From an uncultured bacterium (lineage in GTDB: Bacteria > Oederibacteriota > Oederibacteriia > Oederibacteriales > Oederibacteriaceae), in the NCBI GenBank assembly GCA_965112635.1, contig OZ218778.1, positions 1,760,001 through 1,824,000 of the forward strand: a stretch of DNA of 64,000 nucleotides, given 5' to 3'. The translations under genes and the position numbers were made by a program. Below, piece by piece: positions 13,315 to 64,000 of the stretch. The notes beneath the pieces are model-generated. The model saw only the letters and a list, made by a program, of their open reading frames with translations, did no database searches and was not told the DNA's origin. Numbering within the stretch: position 1 is the stretch's first letter; every line of letters begins with the position of its first letter.

Positions 13315-13567
13315 CAGGATCAATTTAAATATAGGAGATAGAAAATTGAAATATTTGTTACGCAACTACCTTTTGGTCAGCAGGAAGAAATTATTAATTA
13401 GTATTTTATCGCTTTCTTTAATATTTTTGAACAACTTTCTCTTAACGAAATTTAGAAATAATATCTTTGGTTTCGTCTTTTCTGGCGTTTATACTTTTTT
13501 TGTCTATTTATTGCTGATCAATAACATTAATCTTTCCCCTTTATCTCCTTGGGGACTCCTATTAGTA

Positions 13568-15002: not shown

Positions 15003-15368
15003 TATTAGTACAATTCGTTTACAACTTTCTCTTTATCTATCTTCTTATCTATTTTAGTGGGTTGAAAAATATGTATTTGAAAATAGGAATGTTATTGCTT
15101 CTCCTGGGCTTCCATTTTTTAGGTGATTATCTTTCCTTTAAACTTTATATGCAGTATTTAGAACCTATTTGGAGGTCTTATCATAATTGAGATAAAACGC
15201 TTTTGTCCGGTTTCTTCCAAATACCTACGACGCCTTCGGCTCTGCCCTAGGCGTAACTAAGAAACTGAATGGAATCATGCTTTTAGGCAAGTATACAGTT
15301 GATGAGTTAATTTTTATTTAAGTGATAACTTTATATTGTTTTCGATAATTTATGGAGGGGGAAATATT

Positions 15369-15614
15369 ATGAAAAGGTTTAATCTTCTTTCAGTAATTCT
15401 TCCTATGTTGATTTTCTTAATTAGTTCAACCATTCACAGTGCCGTATTTGAGTTAAGTGATTCGTCCAATTATGAACTTCGTTTTGACGGGGCCAACGAT
15501 GAGGACCAGACAGGGAATGTTGTGGTAACGGGAGATTTGAATGGAGATGGCATACCTGATCTGGTCATAGCAGCAAAAAACGCATCATTTAATCGAATTG
15601 GGGTCACATCTTGA
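15369..15614 (+). pseudogene. Secreted FG-GAP/integrin-alpha repeat protein, truncated at the IR of the Y1 element
   Basis: GGAGG RBS, signal peptide, GDLNGDGIPDLVIAA motif. The last codons (GVTS*) come from the inverted repeat at 15598. Confidence 0.75.
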
Positions 15615-28208: not shown

Positions 28209-28284
28209 GCCGAGTTAGCTCAATCGGTAGAGCGCAGGACTGAAAATCCTGGCGTACCCGGTTCGATTCCGGGACTCGGCACCA
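28209..28284 (+). tRNA. tRNA-Phe (GAA)
   Basis: 76-nt cloverleaf: GCCGAGT/ACTCGGC acceptor stem, CAGGA-CTGAAAA-TCCTG anticodon arm, TTCGATT T-loop, encoded CCA. Confidence 0.96.
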
Positions 28285-43570: not shown

Positions 43571-43760
43571 AAAATTCCCTGCGGTGTTCGTGATGAAATG
43601 ACGAGTTTTGAGCCAACACCTTTTTGGAAGGGACCCGACCTCTAAAAGCAGTGTGCATACCTTGACTCAGGTTGAGGCAGCCTAATGCTTTTTCGGGGGT
43701 ACCCACTTATTCATTAAGGTTCAAAAACCAAGTTTCACACGGCACAGGTGGGGAATTTTT
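43571..43760 (+). ncRNA. ssrS: 6S RNA
   Basis: About 190 nt with pairing ends (AAAATTCCC.../...GGGAATTTT), TGTTCGTG...TTGAGCC / GGTTCAA...CACGGCA arms, TGCTATAAT just upstream, and the conserved position between zapA and the cyclo-ligase gene. Confidence 0.85.
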
Positions 43761-47483: not shown

Positions 47484-48743
47484 ATGACAGTTAAACAAAT
47501 GGTTTTGAAAAGAGCCCAGGAGGCAAAGCAGGCCAGTCCGACCTTGGCCAAATTATCCAGTGGGGTAAAGAACAAAGTCCTTGCGGCCATGGCCGATGCG
47601 TTAGAGCACCAGAAGGGCAAGATCCTAGAAGCCAACCAGAAGGATATCAAGGCAGCCGTGGGCCGCAAGCTATCCAAAGCACTCATCGACCGCTTGACTC
47701 TAAATAGCGAACGCATCAAGTCCATGGGCGAGAGTTTGATGACCATAAAGTCCCTGGCGGACCCTGTGGGGGAAATCGTAAAAATTTGGCGCCGGCCCAA
47801 CGGGCTTCAAGTGGGGCGGATGAGGGTCCCTCTGGGGGTAGTCGGAATCGTTTATGAGTCCAGGCCTAACGTCACCGTGGACGTGGCTGGCCTGTGTTTA
47901 AAATCAGGCAATGCCGTGGTCCTGAGAGGGGGTTCCGAAGCGTTTGGCAGCAATAAAGTCTTGGCCGAAATCCTCCAGGACGCCCTTAGAAAAGAAAATC
48001 TGCCGGCGGGCAGCGTCAGCTTTATCGAAAGCGTGGACCGCCAGGCTGTGGTGGAGATGCTCCGTCTGCGTTCTTTGATCGATGTGATCATCCCGCGGGG
48101 AGGCAGGCAACTTAATGATTTCGTTTCTACCCACAGCCTTGTACCGGTGATCCGCCACGACATCGGGAACTGCCACGTTTTTATCGACTCAGACGCGGAC
48201 CTGGAAATGGCCGAAAAGATATCTTTTAACGCAAAAGTCCAGCGTCCCGGAGTTTGTAACGCCATGGAAACTCTTTTAGTCCACAAGAATATTGCCAAGA
48301 AGTTTTTGCCGAAAATGGTCAGAAAGTATCAACAGGCCGGAGTGGAGATCCGGGGCGATGATGCTGTCCGAAAATATTGCCGCGGGATCCAGCGAGCCAC
48401 AGAGAAGGATTGGTACACGGAATATCTGGATCTCATTCTGGCGGTCAAGGTGGTCGCGAATATTGATGAGGCTATGGCCCATATCGCCAAATATGGTTCT
48501 AGCCATACGGAGGCTATTGTCACTCGGACCTATGAGCATGCCCAAAGGTTCCTGAGAGAGGTTGACTCAGCCTGCGTGATGGTCAATGCTTCCACCAGGT
48601 TTACGGACGGCGGACAATTTGGCCTTGGTGCTGAAATGGGGATCAGCACCCAGAAGTTGCATGCCCGGGGGCCAATGGCCTTGGAAGAATTAACTTGTCT
48701 GAAATACATAGTCTATGGGAACGGCCAGATCAGGGAGTCGTGA
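47484..48743 (+). CDS. proA: Gamma-glutamyl phosphate reductase
   Basis: YESRPNVT, IPRGG, CNAMETLL, NASTRFTDG, ISTQKLHARGP. Confidence 0.96.
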   Translation: MTVKQMVLKRAQEAKQASPTLAKLSSGVKNKVLAAMADALEHQKGKILEANQKDIKAAVGRKLSKALIDRLTLNSERIKSMGESLMTIKSLADPVGEIVKIWRRPNGLQVGRMRVPLGVVGIVYESRPNVTVDVAGLCLKSGNAVVLRGGSEAFGSNKVLAEILQDALRKENLPAGSVSFIESVDRQAVVEMLRLRSLIDVIIPRGGRQLNDFVSTHSLVPVIRHDIGNCHVFIDSDADLEMAEKISFNAKVQRPGVCNAMETLLVHKNIAKKFLPKMVRKYQQAGVEIRGDDAVRKYCRGIQRATEKDWYTEYLDLILAVKVVANIDEAMAHIAKYGSSHTEAIVTRTYEHAQRFLREVDSACVMVNASTRFTDGGQFGLGAEMGISTQKLHARGPMALEELTCLKYIVYGNGQIRES

Positions 48744-48757
48744 CCGCAAAGGACAAT

Positions 48758-49384
48758 ATGATCAGTCACCGGGGATCCGTGGGGATATTTGGAGGGACAT
48801 TCAATCCAATCCATCTGGGCCATTTGCTGGTCGCCCAGGAAGTCAGGGAAAAATATGGTCTAAAACAGGTAGTTTTCATCCCTGTTTATTTGCCGCCCCA
48901 TAAGAGCGCTAAGGGTGTCATTGAGCCCAAGCACCGTCTCAATATGATTAAAAAAGCCATCCAGGGTAACCCCTATTTTAAAGTTTCAAACGTGGAAATC
49001 GCCAGGAAAGGAAAGTCATATACTTTCGATACTATTCAATTTTTTCGGCGTCGCCTAGGGAAGGGTGCGCCGCTTTTCTTTATCACCGGTTCAGATGCCC
49101 TTAATACCCTGCATCATTGGTATAAGATTGAGCAGCTGCTGGCGCTGTGCCAGTTCATTATTGTACCCAGGCCGGGGCATCCCATGCCTCCGGCGAAAAG
49201 GTTTCTCGCCCAGCGTTTATTTAGCAAGAAGATGCTGGAAAGGATCCATTACACCAAACTCAAAGTCGTGGATATCTCTTCATCTGAAATAAGAAGGATG
49301 GTCCGGGACAAGAGAGATGTTTCCTATCTTGTCTCAAAGCCGATCGCAGATTATATGAAGAGCCATCAGCTCTATAAAAATTAA
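48758..49384 (+). CDS. nadD: Nicotinate-nucleotide adenylyltransferase
   Basis: FGGTFNPIHLGH, PPHK, SYTFDT, ITGSD, ISSSEIR. Confidence 0.94.
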   Translation: MISHRGSVGIFGGTFNPIHLGHLLVAQEVREKYGLKQVVFIPVYLPPHKSAKGVIEPKHRLNMIKKAIQGNPYFKVSNVEIARKGKSYTFDTIQFFRRRLGKGAPLFFITGSDALNTLHHWYKIEQLLALCQFIIVPRPGHPMPPAKRFLAQRLFSKKMLERIHYTKLKVVDISSSEIRRMVRDKRDVSYLVSKPIADYMKSHQLYKN

Positions 49385-50548: not shown

Positions 50549-50608
50549 TGGCGAGATTTTCCCATATTTACAACCATTCTTGCTCTTTTTGTATTTTTAG
50601 CTACTTCG

Positions 50609-50637
50609 TTGACAAACGGTATTATGACAAGTAATAT
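50609..50637 (+). promoter_or_regulatory. Candidate sigma70 promoter of the motor cluster
   Basis: TTGACA-17 nt-TAATAT about 100 nt upstream of the first gene. Confidence 0.5.
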
Positions 50638-50735
50638 TCATTCAATACAGTAATTCATATTGTAAAATCAGCGTTTTCTGTTGTTTGGTTGAGTGCGTGG
50701 GGAAGTATTTTCCCTGAAAAAATAAAAAAGGGAAA

Positions 50736-51095
50736 GTGAAGGGCGTGAAAAAAGCTGATGAAATCAAAAGACCTCTGAGTTTTGCGACAGGCGAAAAACG
50801 AGAGGCCTTTAGTGCTTTGATCAGGCTTCTCCAAAATGGCGACTGTACTCCTGAAGAACTCACCAAGTATATACTTTCCCAAAAGCAATCTCAGGAACAA
50901 TCCGAAGAAACAGAAATCCCCGCTTCCCGGACATTCCATTTTGGATCCGATTATAGGACTAAAGAGCGAGCCTTTACTCATTTTGAGCATATGCCCCGGA
51001 TGGCCAAGCCAAAAGTTAATTATTTCAACTGGACGGTATTCTTCTTCTTTCTTTTCATGACCATCTTTATACTTCGCAATTTTATTTTTCGATGA
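50736..51095 (+). CDS. Hypothetical protein with single C-terminal TM helix (first gene of motor cluster)
   Basis: 119 aa; hydrophobic tail WTVFFFFLFMTIFIL; 10 nt from the next gene. Confidence 0.6.
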   Translation: MKGVKKADEIKRPLSFATGEKREAFSALIRLLQNGDCTPEELTKYILSQKQSQEQSEETEIPASRTFHFGSDYRTKERAFTHFEHMPRMAKPKVNYFNWTVFFFFLFMTIFILRNFIFR

Positions 51096-51105
51096 GGATA
51101 AAACA

Positions 51106-52770
51106 GTGAGCTTTATCAAAGATTGTGACAACTGGCTGCGCTTGGGAAAAATGCTTACAGGCTGGTTGTTGTTTGTGAGCATTTTCTTTATGACCAGCAT
51201 CTACGCTTTGGACTTAACCCATGGTGACCTGTTGGTCGGAAAGTTGCAATATGAAAGGGAATTAGAAAGAAGGATACAGTCCATATTGATCTCCACGGTT
51301 GGTCCTCAAAAGGCGAAAGTTTCGGTGACCCTGGAGGTCAACAGCGAAGTCGTCTCCAGCAAGGAGGAAACAATCCATTCCGAGACCACCAGCCAGACCA
51401 TTGTATTGAGCAACGGCATCCAAGAGGAGAACTTTGACAATCCTGAGGCGGGGACGGGTGGTCCAGGCAAGGAAGGCAGCGCCAATCAGGCTAGCAGCAA
51501 TGTCTTGGAAGAAACCCGGACCACCAAAGAAACCTTGTCGATGCCTTCCAATTTGATCAAAAAGCTGTCTATCTCTTTGTTGATCAGCGACAAGGTCCCT
51601 GATGCTCTTATCGAAAAAGCCAAGACCATCATTATGGAAGCAGTCAGTTTTAATGCCGACAGGGGGGACCAGCTATCTTTACAAAAGGTCACCTTTATTT
51701 CCGGTGCCGCAGGGGAGATGGAGCAGATCCAGGACCAAAAACAGACAGCGGATTTCTGGCTTGCTTTAACCCGGTATGCCTTGAGCTTGATCTTGGGGGT
51801 CGCTTTCCTTTTGTTTTTGTTCAGTTTGTTAAATACTTTCCGTACCCTGAAACAGGCTGAGATCAATGTGTCCGCTCAGGCCATAGCCGCCAAGGCAGCC
51901 CCTGCCGAAGGCGAGGTCGCAGGACCGGCCGGGGCCACGGCGATCCCGGCTGCGGGATTTGCTGCCGTAGGTGTCCCCGGCACAATGCTTCCCGGGATGC
52001 CTATGGGAATGCCTGGAACGATCACGGTTGGACCCCAGCGCTTCGCTTTCCTCCAGGAGAAGAATTCCAGGGCTCTTCTGCATTTGATCCAAAAAGAGCC
52101 GATCCAAACTATTGCTTTAGTGCTTTCCTATATTACCCCAGAGCAGGCAGCCGGGATCTTGCAGTCCCTCCCAGGGGAGATCCAAAGCCAGGTCGCCTCT
52201 AGGATCTCTACGATCAGTGAAATGTCACCGACGGAAGTGAACAGAATCGAGCAGGATATCAAAGAGAAGATCGATTATGTGGTGGGGGGCAGGGATTCCC
52301 TGGTCAATATCATCCAGAGCATGGGTCCCGATGGAATGAAGGCTATCATCGGCAATCTTGACAGGAGCAATCCAAAGCTGGCCGGTGAATTGAGGCCTTC
52401 ACTATTTACTTTCGATGATGTCCTCCTGTTGGATAGTTTTGCGATCCAGCAAGTTGTCAGGCAACTGAGCATTCCGGAACTGGCCATCGCTTTAAAAAAT
52501 GCCAGCGAAGAGATAAAGAACAAGGTTTTTGGGGCCTTGGCTGAGGGTGCCGCCCAGTTGCTCAGGCAGGAACTGGAGTTGATGAGGCCGCTGCCCGCTC
52601 GGCGCTATATAGAAGCGCAGCGTAAATTTATTCAGGCGGTAAGGATACTTGAACAACAGGGCGTAATCTTTGTGCAGAGAGAAGAATCGACTCCTTCCTC
52701 AGTCGGCGGCAACGACCTGGGTGGTGGGCCTGGTTTAGGGCCCGATTCTCCTTTGGCGCCGATGACCTAG
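51106..52770 (+). CDS. FliF C-terminal ring-domain (RBM3-like)-TM-FliG middle/C-terminal domain fusion
   Basis: Signal peptide (..SIYA/LD); FliF-like ERELERRIQSIL..VG...KVSVT.EV and IKKLSISLLI...AVSFN.DRGDQLSL..V.F; one TM; FliG-like FAFL..EPIQTIALVLSYI.PEQAAGIL..LP, VGG, LFTFDD, IALK, EAQRKFI..VR.LE..G. Confidence 0.85.
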   Translation: MSFIKDCDNWLRLGKMLTGWLLFVSIFFMTSIYALDLTHGDLLVGKLQYERELERRIQSILISTVGPQKAKVSVTLEVNSEVVSSKEETIHSETTSQTIVLSNGIQEENFDNPEAGTGGPGKEGSANQASSNVLEETRTTKETLSMPSNLIKKLSISLLISDKVPDALIEKAKTIIMEAVSFNADRGDQLSLQKVTFISGAAGEMEQIQDQKQTADFWLALTRYALSLILGVAFLLFLFSLLNTFRTLKQAEINVSAQAIAAKAAPAEGEVAGPAGATAIPAAGFAAVGVPGTMLPGMPMGMPGTITVGPQRFAFLQEKNSRALLHLIQKEPIQTIALVLSYITPEQAAGILQSLPGEIQSQVASRISTISEMSPTEVNRIEQDIKEKIDYVVGGRDSLVNIIQSMGPDGMKAIIGNLDRSNPKLAGELRPSLFTFDDVLLLDSFAIQQVVRQLSIPELAIALKNASEEIKNKVFGALAEGAAQLLRQELELMRPLPARRYIEAQRKFIQAVRILEQQGVIFVQREESTPSSVGGNDLGGGPGLGPDSPLAPMT

Positions 52771-52824
52771 GAAGCCGCTGCGGCGTCAGATTGACACTAA
52801 AACCAAGTTTGGAGCATATCAATA

Positions 52825-53589
52825 ATGGATAAGATGTCATTGTTTGGCTATGTCTTTGGTGTCGGTATATTCCTGCTGGGTATGCACCAGGGCGGGACGA
52901 CCAGCCTTTTCTTGAATGAGCACGCGGTGGTCCTCGTGCTGGGGGGTACCTTTGCCGCTGTCATGATCAGTTCCAGTTTTGAACAGACGGTCGTCGCGTT
53001 TAAATCCCTCAAAATATTGTTTTACCCCAAGAAGTATATGCCTGCTCAAGAAATCATCGATGTGATGGTAGGCTTGGCTGAGAAGGCCAGAAGGGATGGA
53101 GTGGGTTCTCTGCCCGAGGAGGCAAAAAAATATAATGAGCCCTTTCTTTCCAACTCGGTTCAGCTAGTGGCGGACGGTTTGCCTTCTGCAACGGTCCAGG
53201 AGATCATTGAAATGGAGATCAATAATACCCGGGACCGCCATAAGGAGAACAGCAATTTCTACCGTGTGGCCGGTATCTACGGCCCCATGTTCGGTCTATT
53301 AGGAACTTTGATCGGCATCGTCCAGGTGCTGAGGAATATTGGGGGGGACCCGACCACAGTGGGTCCGGCCATGGCTGTTGCCATTACGACGGCTTTTTAC
53401 GGGATATTTCTGGCGAACTTTGTGTGTATGCCCATCGCCAATAAACTGAAATTAAGATCAGATGAAGAACTCGCTTTAAAAGAACTTACCATCGTTGGTC
53501 TTATTGCCATCGAATCCGGAGACCTACCCTTGGTTGTGCGGAGAAAGATGGAGACTTTTCTGTCCTATTCCCAGAAAAAAAAGAAATAA
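52825..53589 (+). CDS. motA: MotA/PomA-family stator subunit
   Basis: VLGGTFAA, ARRDG, L..DG, P.FGLLGTLIGIV.VL, GPAMAVA....YG...AN....PIANKL. Confidence 0.92.
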   Translation: MDKMSLFGYVFGVGIFLLGMHQGGTTSLFLNEHAVVLVLGGTFAAVMISSSFEQTVVAFKSLKILFYPKKYMPAQEIIDVMVGLAEKARRDGVGSLPEEAKKYNEPFLSNSVQLVADGLPSATVQEIIEMEINNTRDRHKENSNFYRVAGIYGPMFGLLGTLIGIVQVLRNIGGDPTTVGPAMAVAITTAFYGIFLANFVCMPIANKLKLRSDEELALKELTIVGLIAIESGDLPLVVRRKMETFLSYSQKKKK

Positions 53590-53659
53590 AAAGCCGTTCA
53601 TTTGTTGACCGGGAAAGCGAAGCAATGCTTCATCCCTCGAAGGGATAAAGGAATCTGCC

Positions 53660-54355
53660 ATGGCCATCAGAAAAAGACCTCCTGAAGATATCGAATCCCT
53701 TATGCATCGCGGGACGCAATGGATCATTGTTTATGGCGACCTGATGTCCTATTTGATGATATTTTTCCTTATCTTGTTCGCATTTGCCTCGGCCAAAAAA
53801 GGGAATTTCGTGGAATCCCTCAAGGGAATTGAAAAAACCTTCGGGCAAAAAGAGAAGAAGATGTCCCAGGAGGCGATGAAAGAGGTTCAGGTCCAATCCG
53901 AGATACAAAGTTTTCTGGTCGCGCAAAACCTGACCCAAGTTGCCCGCGTGGTCATGACCGAACAAGATCTAAAAGTTATATTGACCAGCCCAGTGCTTTT
54001 TCCGTCCGGCTCGGCAGAGTTGCATCGCAAATCTTACGGTATTTTGCATACTATAGCCCAATCTATGAAAGATATGCCGAACTATGTCACGGTTGAGGGC
54101 TTCACGGATAATGTCCCAATTCATTCAGCCAAATACAGTTCCAACTGGGAATTGTCCGCGGCGCGAGCCATGCAAGTTGTCAAATACTTTATTGAAGAGG
54201 AGAAAATCTCTCCCACTCAGATCTCCTTCACGGGGTATGGCGAGTACCAGCCGGAATATACCAATGACACCGAAGAACACCGGGGATTGAATAGAAGGAT
54301 CGAGATTATCATCCACCGCATTTTGGTCCCCGTCACGGCAACAAAAAAATCGTGA
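53660..54355 (+). CDS. motB: MotB/PomB-family stator subunit with OmpA-like peptidoglycan-binding domain
   Basis: WIIVYGDLMSYLMIFF (essential Asp); LFPSGSA.L, VEGFTDN.PI, SNWELSAARA, GYGEYQP, NRRIEI. Confidence 0.92.
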   Translation: MAIRKRPPEDIESLMHRGTQWIIVYGDLMSYLMIFFLILFAFASAKKGNFVESLKGIEKTFGQKEKKMSQEAMKEVQVQSEIQSFLVAQNLTQVARVVMTEQDLKVILTSPVLFPSGSAELHRKSYGILHTIAQSMKDMPNYVTVEGFTDNVPIHSAKYSSNWELSAARAMQVVKYFIEEEKISPTQISFTGYGEYQPEYTNDTEEHRGLNRRIEIIIHRILVPVTATKKS

Positions 54356-54371
54356 GAATGAGGGCGGGATT

Positions 54372-55862
54372 TTGAGAATAATCATATGGGTCCTAGCCGC
54401 TTTGATCGTGGGGGGTGCCGGTCTTGCGGCGGCCCAGGAAGCCCAGATGCCCAGCGCCGACATCTTTGTCCACGGTAATCTGGGGCAGCAAAAGATCGGG
54501 AATACGATCGTCATCCAATGCGATGTCTTTAACACGGGGCCTGTGGCGCATTTTTTCCCGGTCTCCGTGAAATTAATGAACGCTGCCGATAACATCGTCC
54601 TGCCGTTCCAGTCCATTTATTTAAAACCCGGGCAGTTCGGCACCTTGACTTTCAATTATGCCTTAAAACCCGACAGCACGAGCCTCGGCCTTTATGCGGT
54701 GGAGGGCAGTGTTTGGCAGGTTCAGGGGCCTAAAAAACGCCTGTCCCTCAAAACCGATACCCAAATCTTTGAGGTGGTGTTGGGTGAAGTTATGAAAAGT
54801 GTCGTCCTGGAAAATTTAACGCTCAAGGGGAAGGTCGTGGGAGGCTCCACGGTGTCTTTGAAATGCCTGGTCCGCAACACCGGCAAGGTTTCCTATACCT
54901 TCCCCGTGAGCGTTAATTTGAGCGGGAGCGATGGGCCTTTTATCGCACCGGTCAAGACCGTGACCCTGGGGCCCAAAAAGAACCAGGGCCTTTCTTTTGA
55001 TGTCAAAATACCCGCTGAAGGGATAGAGCCTAACGCGGTTTTGAGGGTCGTCGCCTGGGATAGGAAGGACGAGAAGGGAAAGTTGCTCATGCCTTACGCT
55101 GACGCCGTCATATCCTTGGAGACAGCCAGCCAGACCTCGGTGGAGGCGTCTTTTGACGGCGAGATAGGGGACCAGCCCCGGGGCAAGACGTTTACTATTG
55201 CTTGCAAGATTAAAAATAACGGCGGCACCCGATTTGAGTTCCCCGTCAAGCTGGATATTTTAGATTCTTCTGATGAACTGGTCGCGACCCCTAAACCTAA
55301 AAAAGTCCTTTTAAAACCAGGGGAAACGAAAAGGATCGGCTTCAGCACCGCGATCAAAGAGGTGGGTGCTTACCAAGCTGTGGTGAGTGTTTGGAAAGAA
55401 AGACGCGGACCCGACAGTTTTGTCGATAAGCTTACGGAGGAGGAACAGAATTTTTCGATTGCCAACGAAGCCACAGGAGGGGCTGAGCAGCAGGGGATGG
55501 ACCTCGGAGTCGGCGAGACCCCTTCCGTGGCCCCGCCTGCGGTGAAATTGATGGACATCATGCTGGCAACATCCCAGGACCAAAAAACACCGGTCAAGGC
55601 CCAGGTGTCCGATAAATTGGGGGCGGTTTCCTGCCGCCTCTATTACCGCCTGAGCACCGAAACAAATCCTGATTTTGTGGAGATGAACCTTTTTTCTGGA
55701 GATGCCAAGAGTGGAGTATGGGTGGGCGAGGTGGATCTCTCCAGACTTTCTGGAAAAATAATTTTTTACGCGGAAGCGGCCAATACAGAGTCCGTGCTAG
55801 GTCGATCCAAAGAATACAGTATTGCCAAGATGGCTACTCCGAAAAACAAACCCAATAAATGA
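54372..55862 (+). CDS. Secreted protein with three tandem Ig-like (CARDB-like) repeats and a C-terminal Ig-like domain
   Basis: Signal peptide (AAA/QE); three repeats C.V.N(T/N)G....FPV.(V/L): CDVFNTGPVAHFFPVSVKL, CLVRNTGKVSYTFPVSVNL, CKIKNNGGTRFEFPVKLDI. Confidence 0.7.
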   Translation: MRIIIWVLAALIVGGAGLAAAQEAQMPSADIFVHGNLGQQKIGNTIVIQCDVFNTGPVAHFFPVSVKLMNAADNIVLPFQSIYLKPGQFGTLTFNYALKPDSTSLGLYAVEGSVWQVQGPKKRLSLKTDTQIFEVVLGEVMKSVVLENLTLKGKVVGGSTVSLKCLVRNTGKVSYTFPVSVNLSGSDGPFIAPVKTVTLGPKKNQGLSFDVKIPAEGIEPNAVLRVVAWDRKDEKGKLLMPYADAVISLETASQTSVEASFDGEIGDQPRGKTFTIACKIKNNGGTRFEFPVKLDILDSSDELVATPKPKKVLLKPGETKRIGFSTAIKEVGAYQAVVSVWKERRGPDSFVDKLTEEEQNFSIANEATGGAEQQGMDLGVGETPSVAPPAVKLMDIMLATSQDQKTPVKAQVSDKLGAVSCRLYYRLSTETNPDFVEMNLFSGDAKSGVWVGEVDLSRLSGKIIFYAEAANTESVLGRSKEYSIAKMATPKNKPNK

Positions 55863-55902: not shown

Positions 55903-56580
55903 ATGAAGACAAGGTCAAAAAATATTTCAATGGAATTATCAATCAGCCTTTGTTTTCTTGTTTTGTTCTGCTTGTCCGCAGAGCTATGGGGCGCCCAGCC
56001 CAGCGCGACACCATTTTCCCCGCAGTCGGATAATGACTACGAACAAAATTACAACGAAGCGATGTCCTTTTACAATGCGGGATTGTTGGATAAGGCCAAG
56101 GCCAGCTTTCAAAAGGTGATCAAGATAAGACCAACGGCCGGAGCCTATCATTATCTGGGCATGATCAGCCAAAAAAAGAACCAGGTCAAAGACGCCATCT
56201 GGCAATGGAAGCAGGCTTTAAACTTGGAGCCGCGACTGGCTGTGGTCTGTTTTAATATCGGGTTGGCTTATGGTTCGTTGAAGCAAGTGGACGAACAGAT
56301 TAAATGGTATAAAAAGGCAGTGGCTTTAAATCCGAAATATTCAAAAGCATGGAACAATCTCGGTTCAGTGTATCTTGAGAAGAAGAGGACCACCGATGCA
56401 TTAAATGCCTTTAGGACCTCGTTGAAAACCAATCCCCATTATGCTGTGGCCGCGGAGAATCTGGCCCTGGTCTATGAAAAGATGGGTCGTCACATTGAAG
56501 CCAAGAAGGAATGGAAATACGCCGCTTCGATAGAGACGAGGCCTGAGTGGAAAAAGGTTTTGGCAGCCAGAGCCAAGTAA
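55903..56580 (+). CDS. Secreted TPR protein
   Basis: Signal peptide; about 5 TPRs (AYHYLG, CFNIGLAY, AWNNLGSVY, AAENLALVY). Confidence 0.85.
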   Translation: MKTRSKNISMELSISLCFLVLFCLSAELWGAQPSATPFSPQSDNDYEQNYNEAMSFYNAGLLDKAKASFQKVIKIRPTAGAYHYLGMISQKKNQVKDAIWQWKQALNLEPRLAVVCFNIGLAYGSLKQVDEQIKWYKKAVALNPKYSKAWNNLGSVYLEKKRTTDALNAFRTSLKTNPHYAVAAENLALVYEKMGRHIEAKKEWKYAASIETRPEWKKVLAARAK

Positions 56581-56832
56581 TGAGCTAGCTAGATTCCTTT
56601 GGTTTTATCCTTTCAATTTTGTTTTTCCTTTATTTACAACCCTTTTATTAAATCCTTTTCTTAAATTTGTGACCAAAATCACACCAAAAAAGTGAAGAAA
56701 TCAAGGGAATTATCCTGGTTTATCCGCTAAAATTTCCTATAACAATTTATAAAAAATCGAAAAAGCCGGCCCAATGCGCGAGCTTGGGTGGGAAAACTAT
56801 CCTCCTATAATTTAGGAACAAGGGGTATACCG

Positions 56833-57768
56833 GTGGCTGATATACATAAAGAAAAAGATATTCTTCTTTTACCCCTTCTCATTACTTTTCTTGCCCTGAC
56901 TTGCCTCATCTTCATCCCTGTCCTCGTGTCCGCTGAAGGAAATACTGCCGCTCAATTTTTAAAGATCCCTATCTCAGCCCGTCCAGCCGCCATGACTGCT
57001 TTTGGAGCCGTCTCTGACGACGTGAACGCCTTGCTTTATAACCCGGCCGGCTTATCCCAATTGTCCCAAAACGAGTTCTCCCTCTCCTATGTTAAATATT
57101 TCACCGACACAAACATGGCATTTTTGGGACTGGCTGTCCCGCTCGCGCACATCGGCACTTTTGGTCTTGGCGTCACATACCTGAGCGTCCTGAATATTGA
57201 CGCCAGGGACGCGCAGGAGAACCAGGCCGGAAGTTTTGGGAGCACGGATTGGGCCGTCACTTTGTCCTACGCCAAGGAAAACCTATGGGGCAACCTGAAT
57301 GCAGGGGCAAGCCTTAAGGTGGTGGGGGAGACTATCGATGCCACAAGCGCAAACGGGCTGGCCGGCGATGTGGGGGTCCTTTGGATCGGTAAAGAGCCGA
57401 GGGCTTCGATAGGACTGGAAGTGGAAAATGTCGGGACCGGCCTGCAATTCATCAATGTCAGTGATCCCTTACCCTTGGGAGTTGTTCTATCAGGTGCTTA
57501 CTGGCCAGTGGAACAGATAGTCGTCGGTACGGATGTGGACATGTATGTGCTGGAGAACAAGACCTATGTGTCCCTGGGCGGGGAAGACTGGCTGACCAAA
57601 GAGTTCGCTCTCAGGCTTGGTTACAAGTTCGGGACCGATCTGGGCCCGCTTTCCGGTTTGACCGGTGGGATAGGGCTGGCCATGGCGGGTTACAGCGTGG
57701 ACTATGCCGCTGGAGATGCCGGAGACCTGGGCACACTGCACCGGGTTTCTTTGGGAATAAAATTTTGA
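56833..57768 (+). CDS. PorV/UPF0164-family outer-membrane barrel
   Basis: AAQFLKIPISARPAAM..AFGAVSDDVNALLYNPAGL, LRLGYKF, DYA....GDLGTLHRVSLGIKF (C-terminal Phe). Confidence 0.85.
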   Translation: MADIHKEKDILLLPLLITFLALTCLIFIPVLVSAEGNTAAQFLKIPISARPAAMTAFGAVSDDVNALLYNPAGLSQLSQNEFSLSYVKYFTDTNMAFLGLAVPLAHIGTFGLGVTYLSVLNIDARDAQENQAGSFGSTDWAVTLSYAKENLWGNLNAGASLKVVGETIDATSANGLAGDVGVLWIGKEPRASIGLEVENVGTGLQFINVSDPLPLGVVLSGAYWPVEQIVVGTDVDMYVLENKTYVSLGGEDWLTKEFALRLGYKFGTDLGPLSGLTGGIGLAMAGYSVDYAAGDAGDLGTLHRVSLGIKF

Positions 57769-57781
57769 AAGGGCAGGCTGA

Positions 57782-60700
57782 ATGAAGCTGGAAGGCATGT
57801 TAAAAAAAATAGGGAAGGCGGTCGTCCTGGCTCTGGTCCTGGGCCTGGGGATGATGCCTTTGGCCTATGCCGGCACCCGCATCAAAACCGTGGAATTTTT
57901 CCTGGGCCAGTATGAGATGGGGCAGGTCAATCTTATCCCTGCCCTTGAGTTTGACACCCCGTCCAAAACCATCGCCCTTCCAGAATCCTCTATTGTTGTC
58001 CGTTCAGCCTGGGTGGACATGCATTTTGTCAGCCAGGATCAAACCAATTTTGAAGCCAATTTTACCGCTGTCACCTTGACGGCAGGCTCTGCGATAGGTT
58101 TTGCCAGCACCAGCAAATTCGCCGCGGCGACAGACAGCCATGATAATGCTTATCATGTGAGATATGACTTTACTTCGGCCCTGCAAACTTTGACCACCGG
58201 CCAATGGAATACTGGTCAAAGTGTTCAGGCCAAGATCAAATTTTTTGCCGCTACCAATTTCCATGCGGTCAAGCTGTATATCACCTATGAGTATGATGAT
58301 ACTTCCGCCACCCAGCTAAAAACCGTCAGATTCCCCCTGGATTCTATGGTGGGAGATTTGACCGTAGCTGACCTTCCTTGTACCGTGATGATCCCTCCAG
58401 CGGAAAGAAGTTCCCCGGGATACAGCTTGAAAGACGCCTGGTTCGAAGTGCACGGGCAGATGGATTATATCTCCGGTGCCATGACCGTAACCGCCCAGAT
58501 CTACCAGAGCGGCACTCCCCAGGGGTCTCCTTCCCAGGGAGGCTGTATCCCTTTGATCACCGGGAACGCTAATTTTGAGTGGACTTATTTTTACGATAAT
58601 ACAGCCAACCTGGCTCTGGATGGCACAACCCAAAGCCTGCGTTTAACGGCCAAGATGGGCAGTTTCCTGCATCCGGGCGGAGAACTGGTGGTCACTTACC
58701 AGGCCACCAATGATGTTATGGGCGCCTTAAAGACCGTGGAAATACCCCTGGCCCAGGGAGTTCTGGCCAATCAAGGTCCTGCCACTTTTACAATTCTGAA
58801 TTATCTCCAGGATAGCGGGGCCAACATACAAAAAATGTGGGCCAGGGTCAGAGGCGTCTGCAATGTGAACACTTATTCGGCCATTACTATTACCGGTGTG
58901 GCCAATGGCACACCAACGGGTCAGTTTGCTTATGAAATGTTTAGTTCCGGCGGCGGTTCAGATACCATGAATGAATACGAACTCATTTATGAAATGACCC
59001 AGCCCTATGCCAACCCCATGACCGTGACCCTGACCGCTACCGGCGGCTCCTCGCCCAGCGCTGTCCTGCTGATAACCTATGGTTGGAATAAGAACCAGAA
59101 TGGACATGAGTTCAAGACGCACCGGCAGCTGATAGGACAGGAAACCAGCCCTTTCCTGTCCGGGACAGTGGGAAATGTGACCGTTTATGCCCCTGAAACT
59201 AATACCAAAACCAAACAGGCTGCTTACGCGGATTGGACCTATTTTGCCGATGCCAATTCTACCAACTGGTGGGTCAGCACTACCATATCCGCGGGTTCGG
59301 GTATGGCCCCAGCTTATGCCGCATTAGACAACAGCTATAAACAGACAGAAGGGATCAACCCAGACCTGAGTAGTGCTGTTTCTGTTTTGAATGCTTCCAA
59401 TGGTCCTTATAGTTTTAATAGGAGCGGCTTTGTCATCGGTATGATGGGCGGGGATATGATCGTGACTTATGATGTAGCTTTCCCCACTTCCACCCCAACA
59501 AGTACGCCCCCGCCGTCAACGTCAACTCCCACTACTTCTCCGACCCGGACGGCTACGGTTACGCCAACTGGAACGGCAACAACAACACCTACATCCACCT
59601 CTACTAGAACTGCCACTAATACGGTTACTCCAACTTCCACATCGACAACCACCGTTACACTGAGTCAAACAGCTTCGGTCACTCCCAGCCTGACAATCAC
59701 TCCCACTGGAACCCAGACACTCACGCAGACCTATACCGCCGGTCCCAGCCAGACGGCTACAATGACCCCTACGAGCACAACCACGATGACGGTAACAGCA
59801 ACCCCTTCAGCAACGTTGACTATGACTACCACAGTCACGCAGACAGCCACACCGAATGGCGGCGGGACGACGATGCTGGATGCGATGACTGGGTTCAGCC
59901 TAGGTAGCGACCCGTGCGGCTACTTTCCTTTGCCAAGTGGTTCCATTACTCTTTCTAAAAATTCCAGTAACTATTACGATTGTTGCAATTCTTTACAAAT
60001 ATCCAACCTTACAAGCACTGGTACTATGGTGCAGATAAAAGTTGAAGATATCACAGGTTCTCCCCAGGATTGGTCCTGTTATTCATCCGTGTCTTTTTGG
60101 ATAATGGCAACTACTTCCGGGGTGCAATATCGGATTGGTTTAAGAGACAACTCCAGTAACTGGACTTGGTCAAGCACCAGTCCGCTTACTTGTCCAACCA
60201 GCTGGACGCAAGTAACCGTCCAGTTGCAAATGTTGGGAAATCCTACCGGATACGACGGATTTAAAAGCGGTTACCTAGGCCCTAATGACTTTAGCCAACT
60301 AACTTGCGTGGAAATCGAATGTGATACGGCCAATGCGACCATACTAATGAATGACCTGGCGTTAGAAGGTAGTCCCTGCACACCTTCTCCCACGCCGTCT
60401 GGGTCGACCTATACTTATTCCTATACCTATACTTACACAACACCGCCGACCAACACCAATACCAATACTCCCACGCCTAGCAGCGCCACCTTGTACCTGT
60501 TGAATACGACAACGGGTGATTCCAGTTTGTGGTATATGGACAAAACCAACCCGTCGCCCTCCACGGATACCACCACAATTCTTTCCACGGGGACCACGGC
60601 GGCTGGTAACTATTTCCTCGTTGAGCCTGGTGTGGCCAATTCCACCTCTTCAGGCACTGTTCTTCCCACTACTTTCAGCCAGATGGGCTGGAGAAGTCCA

Positions 60701-63700
60701 AATACTTCAGGCGGGACCATTTCAGCAGGGAACTGGACCGTTAATGTGAGCCTGACCAATAAGGCGGCCAGGTCCCACAAAGGATATGTCTGGGTCAGGT
60801 TCTGGAAGAGTTCCAACCCTGACGGCAGTGCAGCCACGGCTCTCAGCCCCTGGAACGAAAGCCCGAATCTGCTCAGTTTTCCTGCCTCGGTGACCACACT
60901 AGCGGATACTTTCAACGTTTCCATGCCGCTGGTGACCCTAAATAACGAATACCTTTTTGCGGAATACCTCTGGTTGATACAGACCGCGGGCCTTTCCAAT
61001 ACAGGGTTAAAATTTGTGGCCAATGAGGCCACCGGAGAGACCCTAGTTCTACCGGGATTTATTACTTTTACCCAGACCCCTACGCTGACTATGACGCCTA
61101 CGGTTACCGCGACACCCGGGGGCGGCTCTCAGGTTTTTTATAACGGCGAGCCGGGGGGAGGATTTAGCGATGCAGATTGCGGCGGTGCCTGTGATTATAT
61201 TGACACGGGTGGCGGCCATGGTGGAGCGGTCACTGAGGACGGAGCCAGTGCACATTCCGGATCCTATGGTTTTGATTTTACCTATAATACTAGTGCTGCG
61301 GATACAGATGGTTACTTTTCCTGGACCTGGACGACCAACTATCCCAGCAGGGCCATCAACATCAACTCCTACGATACCGTGTCTTTCTGGATAAAATCGA
61401 ACAGCACCAGGAACACAGATACTCTCTTCTTTTATTTGTTTGACATTAACAATGTGGCCACGAGCTCCCTGGATATTGAGCCATATATCGCTGGAGGGGG
61501 GCCTGTCAATCTTTCGTGGAAACAGGTCTCCATACCCCTTTGGGCGTTTACTTATGGCACTTTTAATAAAACCCAAGCCGCGGGTTTTGAAATAGACCTC
61601 AGCGACTCCGCCCTCACCGGGCCGGTGACCCTGCATATGGATGACGGATATTTCATGTTCTCCGGAGTGGGCACTCCCACCACTACACCCACACCAACGG
61701 CCACACCGAATGGCAGTTGCCCTAATAACCCCGCAATGTCAAATATCAGCATAGGGGTTGGTTCGGGGTATTCCAACTATAATGCCGGAACCTATACTGT
61801 CAATGGAATGGGCAATGGTGTTACAAATAGCGCTGATTCGTTCGACCTGGATTATCTAAGCGTTACGGGAAACAGTATTACGATGGTAGCCAGGGTGACG
61901 GGGGCTACTTATAACTCCGGCATCACAATCAGAAATAGCACCGGCAACGCCGCGGCCTTGGTCGCGCTGTCCATGAATAACAGCGGCATGCTTTACTGTT
62001 TATACCGGTACAACGACGGTATGGTAGCCAATAGCACTTATTATGGAACATATTCCTTCCCTTACTACCTTAAGATCATCCGCTATGGAAGCAGTAATTT
62101 TGATCTCCAGATATCAGCGGATGGCAACACTTGGAATGAGTTGACTTTTCTGAACGGGGTATCTTTAGGCAGTACGGTTGCTGTGGGACTCGAGACCTGG
62201 GATGGCACTGACACGGTCACGGCCACCGGAACTTTTGATAATGTTTGTATTCAAAGCTCCGGGGGGGTCAGTACCCCAACCTATACCCAGACCCTGACAC
62301 CCACGCCATCAGGACCGACCAATACTATTACCAATACCTTTACTATTACCAATACGATTACCCCTTCCTTTACCCCTGTGGGAGCGACCTATACCAACAC
62401 CCCCGTTTCCTGCGGGTGGTCCGAGGCGTTGCTGAGCCCGGCTGAACAGCCCTGGCAGTCGGGATACAACGATACGCAGCCTGGCACCAACGCTCCTTAT
62501 CCAGTTGCCGGGGTAGCCAACCTGGGGCAGGGGATAGCCAATTTCGGCTGCGGCCAGGGCTATATTGCCACCAATTCGGACCAGGATGTCTACCAGTTCC
62601 GCATTCTGAGCTCGGACATCAATAACGGCACCTGCACCAATATGCTTAAGATAGTTTTCACTCCCCCGTCCACTAGTGATAGTTATTATTGTAATCTTTA
62701 TCACTGGAGCGGCTCTTCCTGGCAATCTTCGAATAGCCACAGCGGGGGCAGTGCCATGACCTTTTATTGCGATCTGTCCGCGGGCGGGAACCAGGATTTT
62801 TATATGGTCATCGGCAGCCAAAGCGGTTCCGACCAAGGTCATCCCTATGTGGTCCAGATGTCTATGTTGCAAACCGGGACTATCAGCGGCGTAGTGACGG
62901 CCGTTGGCGTGGGGGCTTCTGGGTCAAGCGGCATTGGAGTCTCGGCATGCGATTCTCAGAGCAATAGTTTTGGCGGGAGCTCCACGAACTCCTCAGGGGC
63001 CTACACGGTCCGTGTGCCAATCAATACGACGGTTTCCAAGATTACCGCGACGCGCGGATGGTACTACGGATGCGCCAGTGACTGGTCCTATGGAACTTCG
63101 GTACTTAACTACGGCGCCGGGGAGGTACTGGCCTCTCAGTGCCAAAGTCTGACCAACCAAAATTTCAATGTTTATCCTGACGCGATCTTAAAAGGAAATA
63201 TAACAGGGCTGACCAACGGGACCAGTATCAATATGAAGATCAGTGACCCCTATGGCTCCAATTTTTCAAATTACGTGCAATTTAACTATAATTCTTCCGC
63301 CCCGACCTATTATGAGATCCACAACGCCATGCCGCGCACCTATGATCTATCCGTTTATCCCAGCGATGCTACTAAAGCCCCGCTGTTCTTCCATAATATA
63401 ACCGTCACGGATGGCTTGCAGACCACCCAGAACTGGAACTTTATCTCGGGCGGCAGCATCAGCGGGACGATCTCGCCGACGGATCCCGGCGTGGAGGTAG
63501 ACTTTTACGAGGGAGGGACCAATTTTTCAGGGGATCCCATTTATACGACCAGGACCGCTTCTGGTGCTTCCTACTTTATGACCAATATGCAACCGGGTAG
63601 TTATGATATAAAGCTCAGCTCCGGTGGTGGTGGCCCGGCACCCTTTTACGCCTATAACTCAATACCCGTGACCAATGGCAACAACACCAACCAGCCGATC

Positions 63701-64000
63701 ACCGGCCTGAACGGCAATAGCACCATTTCCGGCCAGGTCTTTGACACCGCAGGTTATGGAGCCGGGAACCTTACCCTCATAGGATACAGGGTCGGAGATA
63801 ACGTCATGCAGTTGGCTATCCCTATGATGATGGTAACTCCGGTAGGGTCGGCTTCACCTTATACCTATACTTTGCCAGTGGATACCACTTATGGGGGCTC
63901 GTGGAACATTGCGTTGATTGCCAATTTGCAATCCAATAGCTGGCCGACCTTCCTGGACGCCCTTGCTAATGTTCCAGCAGGATCCACAGGCCAGAATCTT
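57782..64000 (+). CDS. Giant secreted multidomain surface protein (>2070 aa, runs off window; missing from ORF track)
   Basis: ATG 57782 with signal peptide (KAVVLALVLGLGMMPLAYA). Sampled segments read in one frame up to 64000 (...LANVPAGSTGQNL). Contains four N-terminal repeats, Pro/Thr linkers, and CBM-like, ConA-like, PPC-like and carboxypeptidase-regulatory-like domains. Confidence 0.85.
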   Translation, partial: MKLEGMLKKIGKAVVLALVLGLGMMPLAYAGTRIKTVEFFLGQYEMGQVNLIPALEFDTPSKTIALPESSIVVRSAWVDMHFVSQDQTNFEANFTAVTLTAGSAIGFASTSKFAAATDSHDNAYHVRYDFTSALQTLTTGQWNTGQSVQAKIKFFAATNFHAVKLYITYEYDDTSATQLKTVRFPLDSMVGDLTVADLPCTVMIPPAERSSPGYSLKDAWFEVHGQMDYISGAMTVTAQIYQSGTPQGSPSQGGCIPLITGNANFEWTYFYDNTANLALDGTTQSLRLTAKMGSFLHPGGELVVTYQATNDVMGALKTVEIPLAQGVLANQGPATFTILNYLQDSGANIQKMWARVRGVCNVNTYSAITITGVANGTPTGQFAYEMFSSGGGSDTMNEYELIYEMTQPYANPMTVTLTATGGSSPSAVLLITYGWNKNQNGHEFKTHRQLIGQETSPFLSGTVGNVTVYAPETNTKTKQAAYADWTYFADANSTNWWVSTTISAGSGMAPAYAALDNSYKQTEGINPDLSSAVSVLNASNGPYSFNRSGFVIGMMGGDMIVTYDVAFPTSTPTSTPPPSTSTPTTSPTRTATVTPTGTATTTPTSTSTRTATNTVTPTSTSTTTVTLSQTASVTPSLTITPTGTQTLTQTYTAGPSQTATMTPTSTTTMTVTATPSATLTMTTTVTQTATPNGGGTTMLDAMTGFSLGSDPCGYFPLPSGSITLSKNSSNYYDCCNSLQISNLTSTGTMVQIKVEDITGSPQDWSCYSSVSFWIMATTSGVQYRIGLRDNSSNWTWSSTSPLTCPTSWTQVTVQLQMLGNPTGYDGFKSGYLGPNDFSQLTCVEIECDTANATILMNDLALEGSPCTPSPTPSGSTYTYSYTYTYTTPPTNTNTNTPTPSSATLYLLNTTTGDSSLWYMDKTNPSPSTDTTTILSTGTTAAGNYFLVEPGVANSTSSGTVLPTTFSQMGWRSPNTSGGTISAGNWTVNVSLTNKAARSHKGYVWVRFWKSSNPDGSAATALSPWNESPNLLSFPASVTTLADTFNVSMPLVTLNNEYLFAEYLWLIQTAGLSNTGLKFVANEATGETLVLPGFITFTQTPTLTMTPTVTATPGGGSQVFYNGEPGGGFSDADCGGACDYIDTGGGHGGAVTEDGASAHSGSYGFDFTYNTSAADTDGYFSWTWTTNYPSRAININSYDTVSFWIKSNSTRNTDTLFFYLFDINNVATSSLDIEPYIAGGGPVNLSWKQVSIPLWAFTYGTFNKTQAAGFEIDLSDSALTGPVTLHMDDGYFMFSGVGTPTTTPTPTATPNGSCPNNPAMSNISIGVGSGYSNYNAGTYTVNGMGNGVTNSADSFDLDYLSVTGNSITMVARVTGATYNSGITIRNSTGNAAALVALSMNNSGMLYCLYRYNDGMVANSTYYGTYSFPYYLKIIRYGSSNFDLQISADGNTWNELTFLNGVSLGSTVAVGLETWDGTDTVTATGTFDNVCIQSSGGVSTPTYTQTLTPTPSGPTNTITNTFTITNTITPSFTPVGATYTNTPVSCGWSEALLSPAEQPWQSGYNDTQPGTNAPYPVAGVANLGQGIANFGCGQGYIATNSDQDVYQFRILSSDINNGTCTNMLKIVFTPPSTSDSYYCNLYHWSGSSWQSSNSHSGGSAMTFYCDLSAGGNQDFYMVIGSQSGSDQGHPYVVQMSMLQTGTISGVVTAVGVGASGSSGIGVSACDSQSNSFGGSSTNSSGAYTVRVPINTTVSKITATRGWYYGCASDWSYGTSVLNYGAGEVLASQCQSLTNQNFNVYPDAILKGNITGLTNGTSINMKISDPYGSNFSNYVQFNYNSSAPTYYEIHNAMPRTYDLSVYPSDATKAPLFFHNITVTDGLQTTQNWNFISGGSISGTISPTDPGVEVDFYEGGTNFSGDPIYTTRTASGASYFMTNMQPGSYDIKLSSGGGGPAPFYAYNSIPVTNGNNTNQPITGLNGNSTISGQVFDTAGYGAGNLTLIGYRVGDNVMQLAIPMMMVTPVGSASPYTYTLPVDTTYGGSWNIALIANLQSNSWPTFLDALANVPAGSTGQNL
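59480..59855 (+). repeat. Long Thr/Pro-rich coding linker within the giant protein
   Basis: PTSTPTSTPPPSTSTPTTSPTRTATVTPTGTAT... Shorter copies occur near 60380-60480, 61060-61120, 61670-61710 and 62270-62400. Confidence 0.8.

Follow-up and report, generated by a model that had tools for sequence, protein, structure and literature searches.

The window analysed here, a stretch of 64,000 nucleotides from an uncultured bacterium of the Oederibacteriota (positions 1,760,001 to 1,824,000 of contig OZ218778.1), carries a gene in which parts of two flagellar rotor proteins, FliF and FliG, are joined in a single polypeptide, directly followed by genes for a MotA- and a MotB-type stator subunit (Table 1). 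The order of domains in the fusion protein is an N-terminal hydrophobic segment, a periplasmic domain resembling the ring-building domain RBM3 of FliF, one transmembrane (TM) helix, and the middle (FliG_M) and C-terminal (FliG_C) domains of FliG. The window lies within a single-contig 2.88-Mb genome (G000) which holds a complete flagellar gene cluster at a distance, and the fusion with its stator appears to be an undescribed motor driving something other than a flagellum.

The fusion protein and its stator genes

The Pfam family YscJ_FliF_C (PF08345) matched residues 61-197 of the fusion over the whole profile (positions 1-147; E 3e-11, 44.4 bits, cut-off 23.8), with FliG_M at residues 322-392 (E 3e-20) and FliG_C at residues 417-521 (E 8e-29) behind it. 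Two hydrophobic segments are present, residues 17-35, which form either a cleaved signal peptide or an uncleaved TM helix, and residues 224-242. PF01514, the Pfam family of FliF RBM1/2, gave zero matches in the 554 residues, the FliG_N match was weak (333-421) and overlapped the M domain, and of the 338 positions of the NCBIfam fliG model TIGR00207 only 111-331 were aligned; it is thereby confirmed that RBM1/2 and the FliG N domain have been lost. The protein scored below the NCBIfam equivalog cut-offs for both FliG (TIGR00207, 151.8 vs 226.7 bits) and FliF (TIGR00206, 37.2 vs 129.75 bits).

An AlphaFold2 (AF2) monomer model, built on an 86-sequence family alignment and with a mean predicted local distance difference test score of 78.6, shows the N domain as a helix and two strands, then a disordered insertion (89-139), and after it two more strands, a helix and a last strand. 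From there the chain runs through a long TM helix and an Ala/Pro/Gly linker (262-316), which is disordered, into an all-helical FliG_MC region. The top Foldseek matches among PDB entries were FliG_MC structures (1lkv, E 2e-14), and the isolated FliG C domain (1qc7) matched the model with template-modelling scores on the target (TMt) of 0.86-0.93. The N domain resembles the RBM3/collar region of the Salmonella and Vibrio FliF rings (6scn, 6sd1, 8z4g; E about 1e-4, probability 1.0, TMt 0.5-0.6); SpoIIIAG came up as a weak match, both in Foldseek (5wc3, E 0.12) and in NCBIfam (TIGR02830, E 0.008). A profile of the family matched T. maritima FliG_MC with E 2e-75. A four-copy complex prediction for residues 36-200 reached a best score of 0.26 (mark 0.42), which speaks neither for nor against ring assembly.

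The A subunit of the stator matches MotA_ExbB (E 6e-27) and, over its full length, solved MotA/PomA chains with their four-TM fold (E 6e-42 to 1e-32). Its match to NCBIfam PomA (E 3e-54) is likewise full length and remains below the equivalog cut-off (183.9 vs 341 bits), as does the score of 180 vs 237 bits against a further MotA-side model. The B subunit carries MotB_plug (E 3e-10) and OmpA (E 8e-21) matches, its Asp27, within Y-G-D-L-M-S of the TM helix, aligns with the Asp of the flagellar MotB of the same genome, and its best MotB-side score stays under the equivalog cut-off (162.5 vs 283 bits). The pair thus displays the features of flagellar-type stators, namely the four-TM PomA/MotA fold, plug, TM Asp and OmpA-like domain. 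In the available part of a survey of MotAB evolution, stators of this type are defined by plug and OmpA-like domain, and the group is called flagellar (PMC12505986). As for dependence on a flagellum, close relatives, 51-65% identical to the second MotA copy of the genome, were found in genomes without a FlhA or FliM/N match, an absence that in metagenome-assembled genomes (MAGs) is not proof. As a side observation, the Elusimicrobiota genome G100 has a second MotB-like gene directly after the first (L086:6943-7596, minus strand), in which Asn replaces the channel Asp, and tandem MotB pairs also occur in locus L069.

Seven fusions were aligned with the canonical FliG of the window's genome. None of them has the His of E-H-P-Q, a motif of the M domain, or either of two torque-helix Arg, that of S-R-A and that of G-P-V-R-L; all retain one or both acidic residues of the E-D pair. 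From the literature on E. coli and T. maritima, we take E-H-P-Q to be the FliM-binding motif and the torque-helix residues to make the contacts with MotA. On the strength of the alignment, the lost His and Arg and the kept acidic position would fit a rotor that works without FliM and has a stator of its own. On the side of MotA, the Arg of K-A-R is kept in six of seven fusion-linked copies, the seventh having a Lys one residue earlier. In the window's copy, Pro stands in place of the Glu of L-E, which is kept in the second copy of the genome and in the four MotAs most similar to that second copy. A charge change in MotA that would compensate for the lost FliG Arg was looked for and set aside, the pattern being anecdotal.

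Ahead of the fusion gene, a consensus scan picked out a promoter-like site in the intergenic region (50609-50637; TTGACA, 17-nt spacer, TAATAT; 10 of 12 consensus positions matched). A preliminary description of this DNA, made from the sequence alone, had let the system begin at 50736, but this position belongs to a 119-aa open reading frame (ORF; 50736-51095) in another frame, which has no Pfam match and is probably not a gene; the fusion gene starts at ~51106. The same description had proposed the fusion architecture, with RBM3 as the N domain and RBM1, RBM2 and the FliG N domain lost, had placed motA and motB directly 3' with channel Asp and peptidoglycan-binding domain intact, and had seen no flagellar or che genes in the 64 kb. 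All of this has held: the architecture is borne out by Pfam, NCBIfam, AF2 and Foldseek, the RBM3 identity by Pfam sequence match and Foldseek fold match, the losses by the lack of PF01514 and of a separate FliG_N, and the stator genes by Pfam and alignment. Similarly, the 59 ORFs of 90 aa or more in the window gave no flagellar or che gene (47 were covered by a scan at E<=1e-6, 11 by Pfam/NCBIfam, and the nadD-like ORF 48695-49384 was named from its translation only).

Table 1. Features at the fusion locus, with positions in the window, and genes of the flagellar cluster elsewhere in the same genome.
Feature	Position	Strand	Description and evidence
ORF, 261 aa	49763-50548		upstream of the fusion; no family match (Pfam, NCBIfam)
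Intergenic region	50549-51105	+	557 bp, 5' of the fusion gene
Fusion gene	51106-52770	+	554-aa product; ORF list, Pfam, NCBIfam, AF2, Foldseek
MotA/PomA-type stator A subunit	52825-53589	+	254 aa; Pfam, NCBIfam, solved-chain matches
MotB-type stator B subunit	53660-54355	+	231 aa; plug, TM helix with Asp27, OmpA-like peptidoglycan-binding domain
Secreted protein	54372-55862	+	496 aa; weak Ig-like (immunoglobulin-like; CARDB/HYDIN-like) repeats; sub-threshold Pfam matches only
Secreted TPR protein	55903-56580	+	225 aa; Pfam TPR_1, TPR_2, TPR_8
PorV/PorQ-family outer-membrane beta-barrel	56788-57768	+	326 aa; NCBIfam NF033709
Giant secreted protein	57782-64000	+	3740 aa, first 2073 codons in window; continues past window end
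Flagellar cluster, flg genes			FlgA/H/I/J/K/B/C/E
Flagellar cluster, fli/flh genes			FliE/F/G/H/I/J/L/M/Y/O/P/Q/R, FlhA/B/F

Genomic context and distribution of the family

The flagellar cluster of the genome, at 2.05-2.09 Mb, is complete and has its own MotA/MotB; its FliF (569 aa) and FliG (340 aa) both score above their equivalog cut-offs. Since the genome has separate fliF and fliG genes, the fusion is not simply the MS/C ring of this organism's flagellum. A second, paralogous fusion locus was found on the minus strand at G000:C1:24211-29113 (loci L003, L090), in the order PorV-like barrel with TPR (515 aa), fusion (581 aa), MotA (268 aa), MotB (232 aa) and an 824-aa protein which has a TM segment and no Pfam match; flanking this locus are Thr-rich proteins with ends resembling a C-terminal sorting domain (CTD) of the type IX secretion system (T9SS). 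Both fusion loci, at ~25 kb and 1.81 Mb on C1, are far from the flagellar cluster. Within that cluster, between flgK and flgB (L087:6524-9469, that is G000:C1:2058524-2061469), lie genes for a 604-aa protein with a PorZ-like C terminus and for a PorV/PorQ-family barrel (138 bits vs cut-off 90), an unexplained link between T9SS-like and flagellar genes.

The breadth of the family was assessed with a profile made from five full-length members and run against 1.84 billion protein representatives at 50% identity; it returned 1584 proteins at E<=1e-30, ordinary FliG included. The N domain followed by FliG_MC was present in 129 of the 149 best representatives (median length 513 aa), a count that is partly circular, as the counting hidden Markov models came from a family alignment with 85 sequences of the same search, 84 of them among the 149. 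An N domain that begins no later than residue 80 is shared by 126 of the 129; in the remaining three (P0116, P0145, P0153) a whole FliF is fused to FliG. The profile was needed, as a word-based protein search gave only 3 full-length relatives besides the window's protein, and of 7 loci from a contig search with a single peptide pattern only L007 proved to be a family member. Where annotations are given, they read 'hypothetical protein' or 'FliG C-terminal domain-containing protein', and the named carriers are Elusimicrobiota/Endomicrobiales, Candidatus Firestonebacteria and Candidatus Margulisiibacteriota, the proteins named Candidatus Firestonebacteria coming from two genomes of the window's phylum (G013, G017); the bacterium of the window is thus itself probably a member of the Firestonebacteria. 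Clusters that combine the three Pfam domains of the fusion are also present in the ESM Atlas, most often from Elusimicrobiota. From its sequences, the fusion is a large family without a name of its own. Further ESM Atlas entries, to be taken as leads only, are 'hypothetical proteins' of 550-680 aa that contain FliG_C and occur most often in Bdellovibrionota, Balneolota and Bacteroidota; a cluster of 362 aa combining FliG_M and YscJ_FliF_C was seen in Thermodesulfobacteriota. Non-canonical FliG-domain proteins may therefore extend beyond the family described in this work.

FliG_MC sequences (83 rows) were placed in a quick, unrooted maximum-likelihood tree, for which canonical FliG was sampled narrowly, from the window's phylum, from two spirochaete MAGs and from metagenome proteins of a Firmicutes-like kind. 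The tree gathers the 16 canonical FliG rows together with P0116 and P0145 in one group (SH-aLRT, a likelihood-ratio support value, 100), and leaves the other 65 fusion rows outside it and more divergent from one another. P0116 and P0145, being inside the canonical group, are distinct from the family studied here. They and P0153, all metagenome representatives, join RBM1/2 and RBM3 to FliG_M+C, P0153 with FliG_N as well. Another protein, P0087, joins FliM, DUF4116 repeats and FliG_M+C.

Within the window's phylum, full-length fusions occur in 4 of 99 genomes (G000, G013, G014, G017). In G013, G014 and G017 (completeness 80, 96 and 96%) the fusions are the sole matches of the profile, though it also detects canonical FliG, and no match to FlhA was obtained; these three genomes carry MotA-type genes besides the fusions. 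Their fusion genes (L034, L035, L036) follow a gene for an AAA_22 (ExeA-like) ATPase, and MCP-CheA-CheY-CheW genes, in G017 with CheC too, are adjacent to or divergent from them. A wider sample, 301 genomes drawn evenly from the Elusimicrobiota, the phylum of the MAG G099, gave profile matches (E<=1e-20) in 109 genomes, usually two to four per carrier, most of the listed matches spanning both halves of the fusion. FlhA was found in 6 of the 301, and FliMN_C exceeded its cut-off in the same 6. Neither export gate nor switch protein was found in 103 of the 109 profile-matching genomes, which include a few with weak matches only (e.g. G301, G381, G384, E about 1e-24). Among the carriers is a 2.7-Mb single-contig genome (G383) that has fusion and MotA-type genes and no FlhA match.

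The co-occurrence with MotA is close. With the second MotA of the window's genome as query (E<=1e-20), a MotA-type gene was detected in 112 of the 301 genomes; 107 have both fusion and MotA, 2 the fusion only, 5 MotA only, and 187 neither. For synteny, 150 of 240 matches were listed for fusion and for MotA alike, and 92 of the 150 listed MotA matches lie no more than 10 kb downstream of a listed fusion on the same strand, 52 of them within 1 kb. Two kinds of fusion can be distinguished by reading individual entries rather than by count: long-form fusions (600-680 aa) with a C-terminal TPR, whose MotA, 51-65% identical to the second copy, is encoded a few kb downstream, and short-form fusions (about 480-520 aa) with a directly adjacent MotA of a class 33-40% identical to that copy. 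The window's fusion is of the short kind, and the ~25-kb locus groups with the long kind.

A survey of neighbours covered 21 Elusimicrobiota loci, namely L007 and 20 selected among the top matches. In 17 of them the gene immediately 5' of the fusion encodes a PorV-like barrel with TPR, and in 15 an ORF of at least 1000 aa lies immediately 3'; motA-motB lies within the fetched stretch in four loci, and motA alone in one more. The giant protein 3' of long-form fusions is K/E-rich with a C-terminal TPR and, from a reading of the consensus, looks like a coiled coil. An identity as SprA-like barrel was considered for these giant proteins and dropped in view of the K/E-rich, coiled-coil-like alignment and the TPR end; PPDK and other genes beyond motB in some loci were set aside as unrelated housekeeping genes. 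Small ORFs ahead of the barrel gene, scanned in three loci, each consist only of a FlgD_ig/Por_Secre_tail-like domain.

In the window itself, genes for Ig-like, TPR, PorV/PorQ-family and giant proteins follow motB on the same strand with short gaps. The gene for the 496-aa Ig-like protein probably belongs to the fusion-motAB operon by position, because it starts 16 bp 3' of motB; no homologue was found in the 25 relatives' loci searched. The 225-aa TPR protein matches the C-terminal TPR part of long-form fusions elsewhere (E 1e-5 to 2e-10). The 326-aa barrel reaches 157 bits against NF033709 (cut-off 90) and falls short of the PorV and PorQ equivalog cut-offs. The 3740-aa protein is Thr/Ser-rich (18% Thr). 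Its N terminus looks like a signal peptide, and its C terminus, a T9SS-like sorting domain, resembles the small FlgD_ig/Por_Secre_tail-like ORFs of the Elusimicrobiota loci (E 3e-8). Beyond the window, 3' of the giant gene, lie genes for a CARDB+FecR protein (678 aa), a FecR+DUF7354 protein (232 aa) and proteins of 406 and 255 aa. Homologues of these four (E 1e-52, 1e-15, 5e-42 and 8e-16) are found in G100 (L086), directly 5' of a cluster of short-form fusion, motA, motB, motB and TPR genes. On the upstream side, the 261-aa ORF has no homologue in the relatives' loci searched and is tied to the system by position only. Elsewhere in the window, a region of low GC content (12000-16500, 0.40-0.47) contains a Mutator-family transposase (13721-14953) and an IS200-like Y1 transposase (15656-16492), a tRNA gene lies at 28209-28281 (+), and 6S RNA (92.7 bits) at 43573-43758 (+), just 5' of a gene for an MgsA-like ATPase.

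Proposed mechanism and alternative explanations

We consider it probable, if by no means assured, that the genes in the window encode a non-flagellar machine of the cell envelope, driven by ions and made from flagellar-type parts, of which the genome has two paralogous copies. The fusion would place the RBM3-like ring-building domain in the periplasm and FliG_M+C under the inner membrane, the covalent TM helix and linker replacing the flagellar contact between the FliF tail and FliG N. Copies of the fusion may assemble, as FliF RBM3 does, into a ring which bears a cytoplasmic ring of FliG C domains, and the MotA/MotB-type stators encoded next to it, anchored to peptidoglycan, would push this FliG ring at the expense of the ion-motive force. 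Such a module would work without type III export gate, rod, hook, filament or FliM/N switch. The recurrent PorV-like barrel, the TPR, Ig-like and FecR-like proteins, the giant CTD proteins and, in one lineage, the che genes suggest an output at the cell surface. It would pass through periplasmic TPR and Ig-like proteins to the PorV-like outer-membrane barrel, and from there to the giant surface proteins with T9SS-like C-terminal domain, so that the machine might move or export surface adhesins in gliding or secretion, under chemosensory control in some lineages.

Several claims of the preliminary description bear on this proposal. It had named a full flagellar set lacking separate fliF and fliG as the case in which the fusion would simply be the MS/C ring; the full set found in this genome includes both as separate genes, and the non-flagellar reading stands. 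Uncoupling from type III export agrees with the finding that most carrier genomes have no detectable FlhA or FliM/N, and the expected conservation of gene order in relatives was recovered, fusion then motA being kept across two phyla. Its picture of a minimal one-protein rotor plus stator is supported in its non-flagellar part and was understated otherwise, as further partners recur with the module, namely PorV-like barrel, TPR proteins, giant proteins and FecR/CARDB proteins.

A number of observations count against a rotating machine of this kind. The loss of two torque-helix Arg could mean that the FliG domain no longer receives torque, and the AF2 monomer shows no order in the RBM3 insertion (89-139). 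Furthermore, the three Oederibacteriota genomes without FlhA match have a single MotA-type gene on another contig than the fusion, and for 58 of the 150 fusion matches listed, the MotA list has no entry within 10 kb. One should also recall that most of the genomes are incomplete MAGs, so that 'no FlhA' stands for not found rather than proven absent, and that related genomes are not independent, so that the co-occurrence counts overstate the number of independent events.

The main rival, possible though distinctly less likely, dispenses with a closed rotating ring. In this explanation the stator acts on FliG domains of fusions that are either arrayed on the giant K/E-rich coiled-coil protein as on a track or function singly, as TonB/TolA-like transducers delivering linear or conformational work. 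The giant coiled-coil-like protein with its C-terminal TPR in 15 of 21 loci, 3' of the long-form fusion, and the cytoplasmic TPR in which these fusions themselves end, are well accommodated by it, and Tol, Ton and Agl deliver work to the envelope without a FliG ring. What speaks for a ring is the fold of the periplasmic domain, that of FliF RBM3, for which all solved cases are rings of 33-35 subunits; even the weaker match SpoIIIAG (E 0.12) is a ring former. We think it improbable, more so than the explanation just given, that the modules descend from a free-standing rotor-stator lineage, a sister of the MS/C ring, and no recent offshoot of it, that was never linked to type III export or was unlinked from it very early. 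They would then be a living model of a motor-first stage in the evolution of the flagellum, now serving as a chemosensory-controlled driver of surface proteins in gliding or secretion. As the tree is unrooted, it neither shows nor excludes such a sister lineage.

Two further explanations fit the comparative data poorly. That the two fusions and their stators are accessories of the flagellar motor in this organism, as extra rotor or stator-scaffold rings, is suggested by the flagellated genome and by the PorV/PorQ-family gene inside the flagellar cluster. We hold it to be very unlikely: both fusion loci are far from that cluster, the FliM-binding motif is degenerate in the fusions, 103 of the 109 Elusimicrobiota genomes matched by the family profile, which also matches canonical FliG, have no FlhA match, and three genomes of the window's phylum have full-length fusions and no FlhA. 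Least credible of all is a decay of these genes into functionless remnants of a lost flagellum, even if rotor proteins without filament are reported for 11% of non-motile species in the available part of PMC12199754. Reading frames are intact, each genome has two to four paralogues, at least three phyla (Elusimicrobiota, Candidatus Firestonebacteria, Candidatus Margulisiibacteriota) share the architecture and the neighbours, and the family co-occurs tightly with a dedicated stator.

Comparison with known systems

A full-text literature search, in which few subscription journals were covered, turned up neither a fusion of this kind nor a FliG-MotAB system outside the flagellum. In the available parts of three papers, the survey of MotAB evolution mentions neither a FliG fusion nor Elusimicrobia (PMC12505986), the words 'fusion' and 'fused' do not occur in PMC12199754, and a 2026 review of gliding motors, in which the Tol, Ton and Agl relatives are treated, has zero mentions of FliG (PMC13104615). 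FliG and PomA/MotB-type stators bearing plug and OmpA-like domain are treated as hallmarks of the flagellum. If the proposed machine is real, it would add a fourth kind to the machines powered by a 5:2-type ion motor, and FliG would for the first time be found as a rotor outside the flagellum. It would also offer a natural, simple system in which to study the requirements of assembly and rotation in a FliG ring with its stators, would bear on the delivery of torque to the outer membrane and on rotor-first versus export-first schemes of flagellar evolution, and may account for motility, or for the export of surface proteins, among the Elusimicrobiota, the Firestonebacteria and uncultured groups related to them.

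With flagellar FliF/FliG/MotAB the module shares the RBM3-like domain, FliG_M+C, the four-TM PomA-like A subunit and the B subunit with plug, Asp and OmpA-like domain. In contrast to the flagellum, the fusion has no RBM1/RBM2 and no FliG N, and the module comes without genes for FliM/N, export gate, rod, hook or filament; unlike in flagellar FliG, the torque-helix Arg and E-H-P-Q are not conserved, and the protein is found in genomes without detectable FlhA or FliM/N. The covalent join is reminiscent of engineered and spontaneous FliF-FliG fusions, the engineered ones still forming S rings (Vibrio structures 8z4d/8z4g; available part of PMC11481574). Engineered as well as natural whole FliF-FliG fusions keep RBM1/2, unlike the family described here, which falls outside the canonical FliG group.

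A ring-building domain of the RBM3 type outside a type III system is also known from the SpoIIIAG ring of sporulation, to which the fusion shows weak matches; SpoIIIAG has neither FliG domain nor stator. The Agl-Glt machinery of Myxococcus offers a stator-like, ion-driven motor with TPR and outer-membrane partners and a chemosensory link (available part of PMC13104615). Unlike the stator here, the Agl proteins are TolQR-like, without plug or OmpA domain. We know of no FliG-like partner of Agl.

With the T9SS and gliding of Bacteroidota, finally, the locus has in common a PorV/PorQ-family barrel, proteins with T9SS-like CTD, one of them of 3740 aa, and an ion-driven motor of the 5:2 type. The giant adhesin SprB is a CTD cargo of the Bacteroidota gliding motor and provides an analogy for the 3740-aa protein. 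In Bacteroidota, GldLM stators work with a GldKN ring, and PorV acts as a shuttle. The difference lies in the motor, which here consists of MotAB and a FliG domain and not of GldLM. GldM_1st has no match in this genome (GldL, PorK/N and PorU were not searched for), the PorV and PorQ equivalog cut-offs are not reached, and SprA_N gave a sub-threshold match only (21 bits, E 1.4e-4; G000:C1:116670-116966, minus strand) in an open frame of 1851 aa, which could, from this match, be a remote SprA-like translocon. By analogy, the machine proposed here would be a functional counterpart of the Bacteroidota T9SS/gliding motor, driven by MotAB-type stators on a FliG-bearing fusion.

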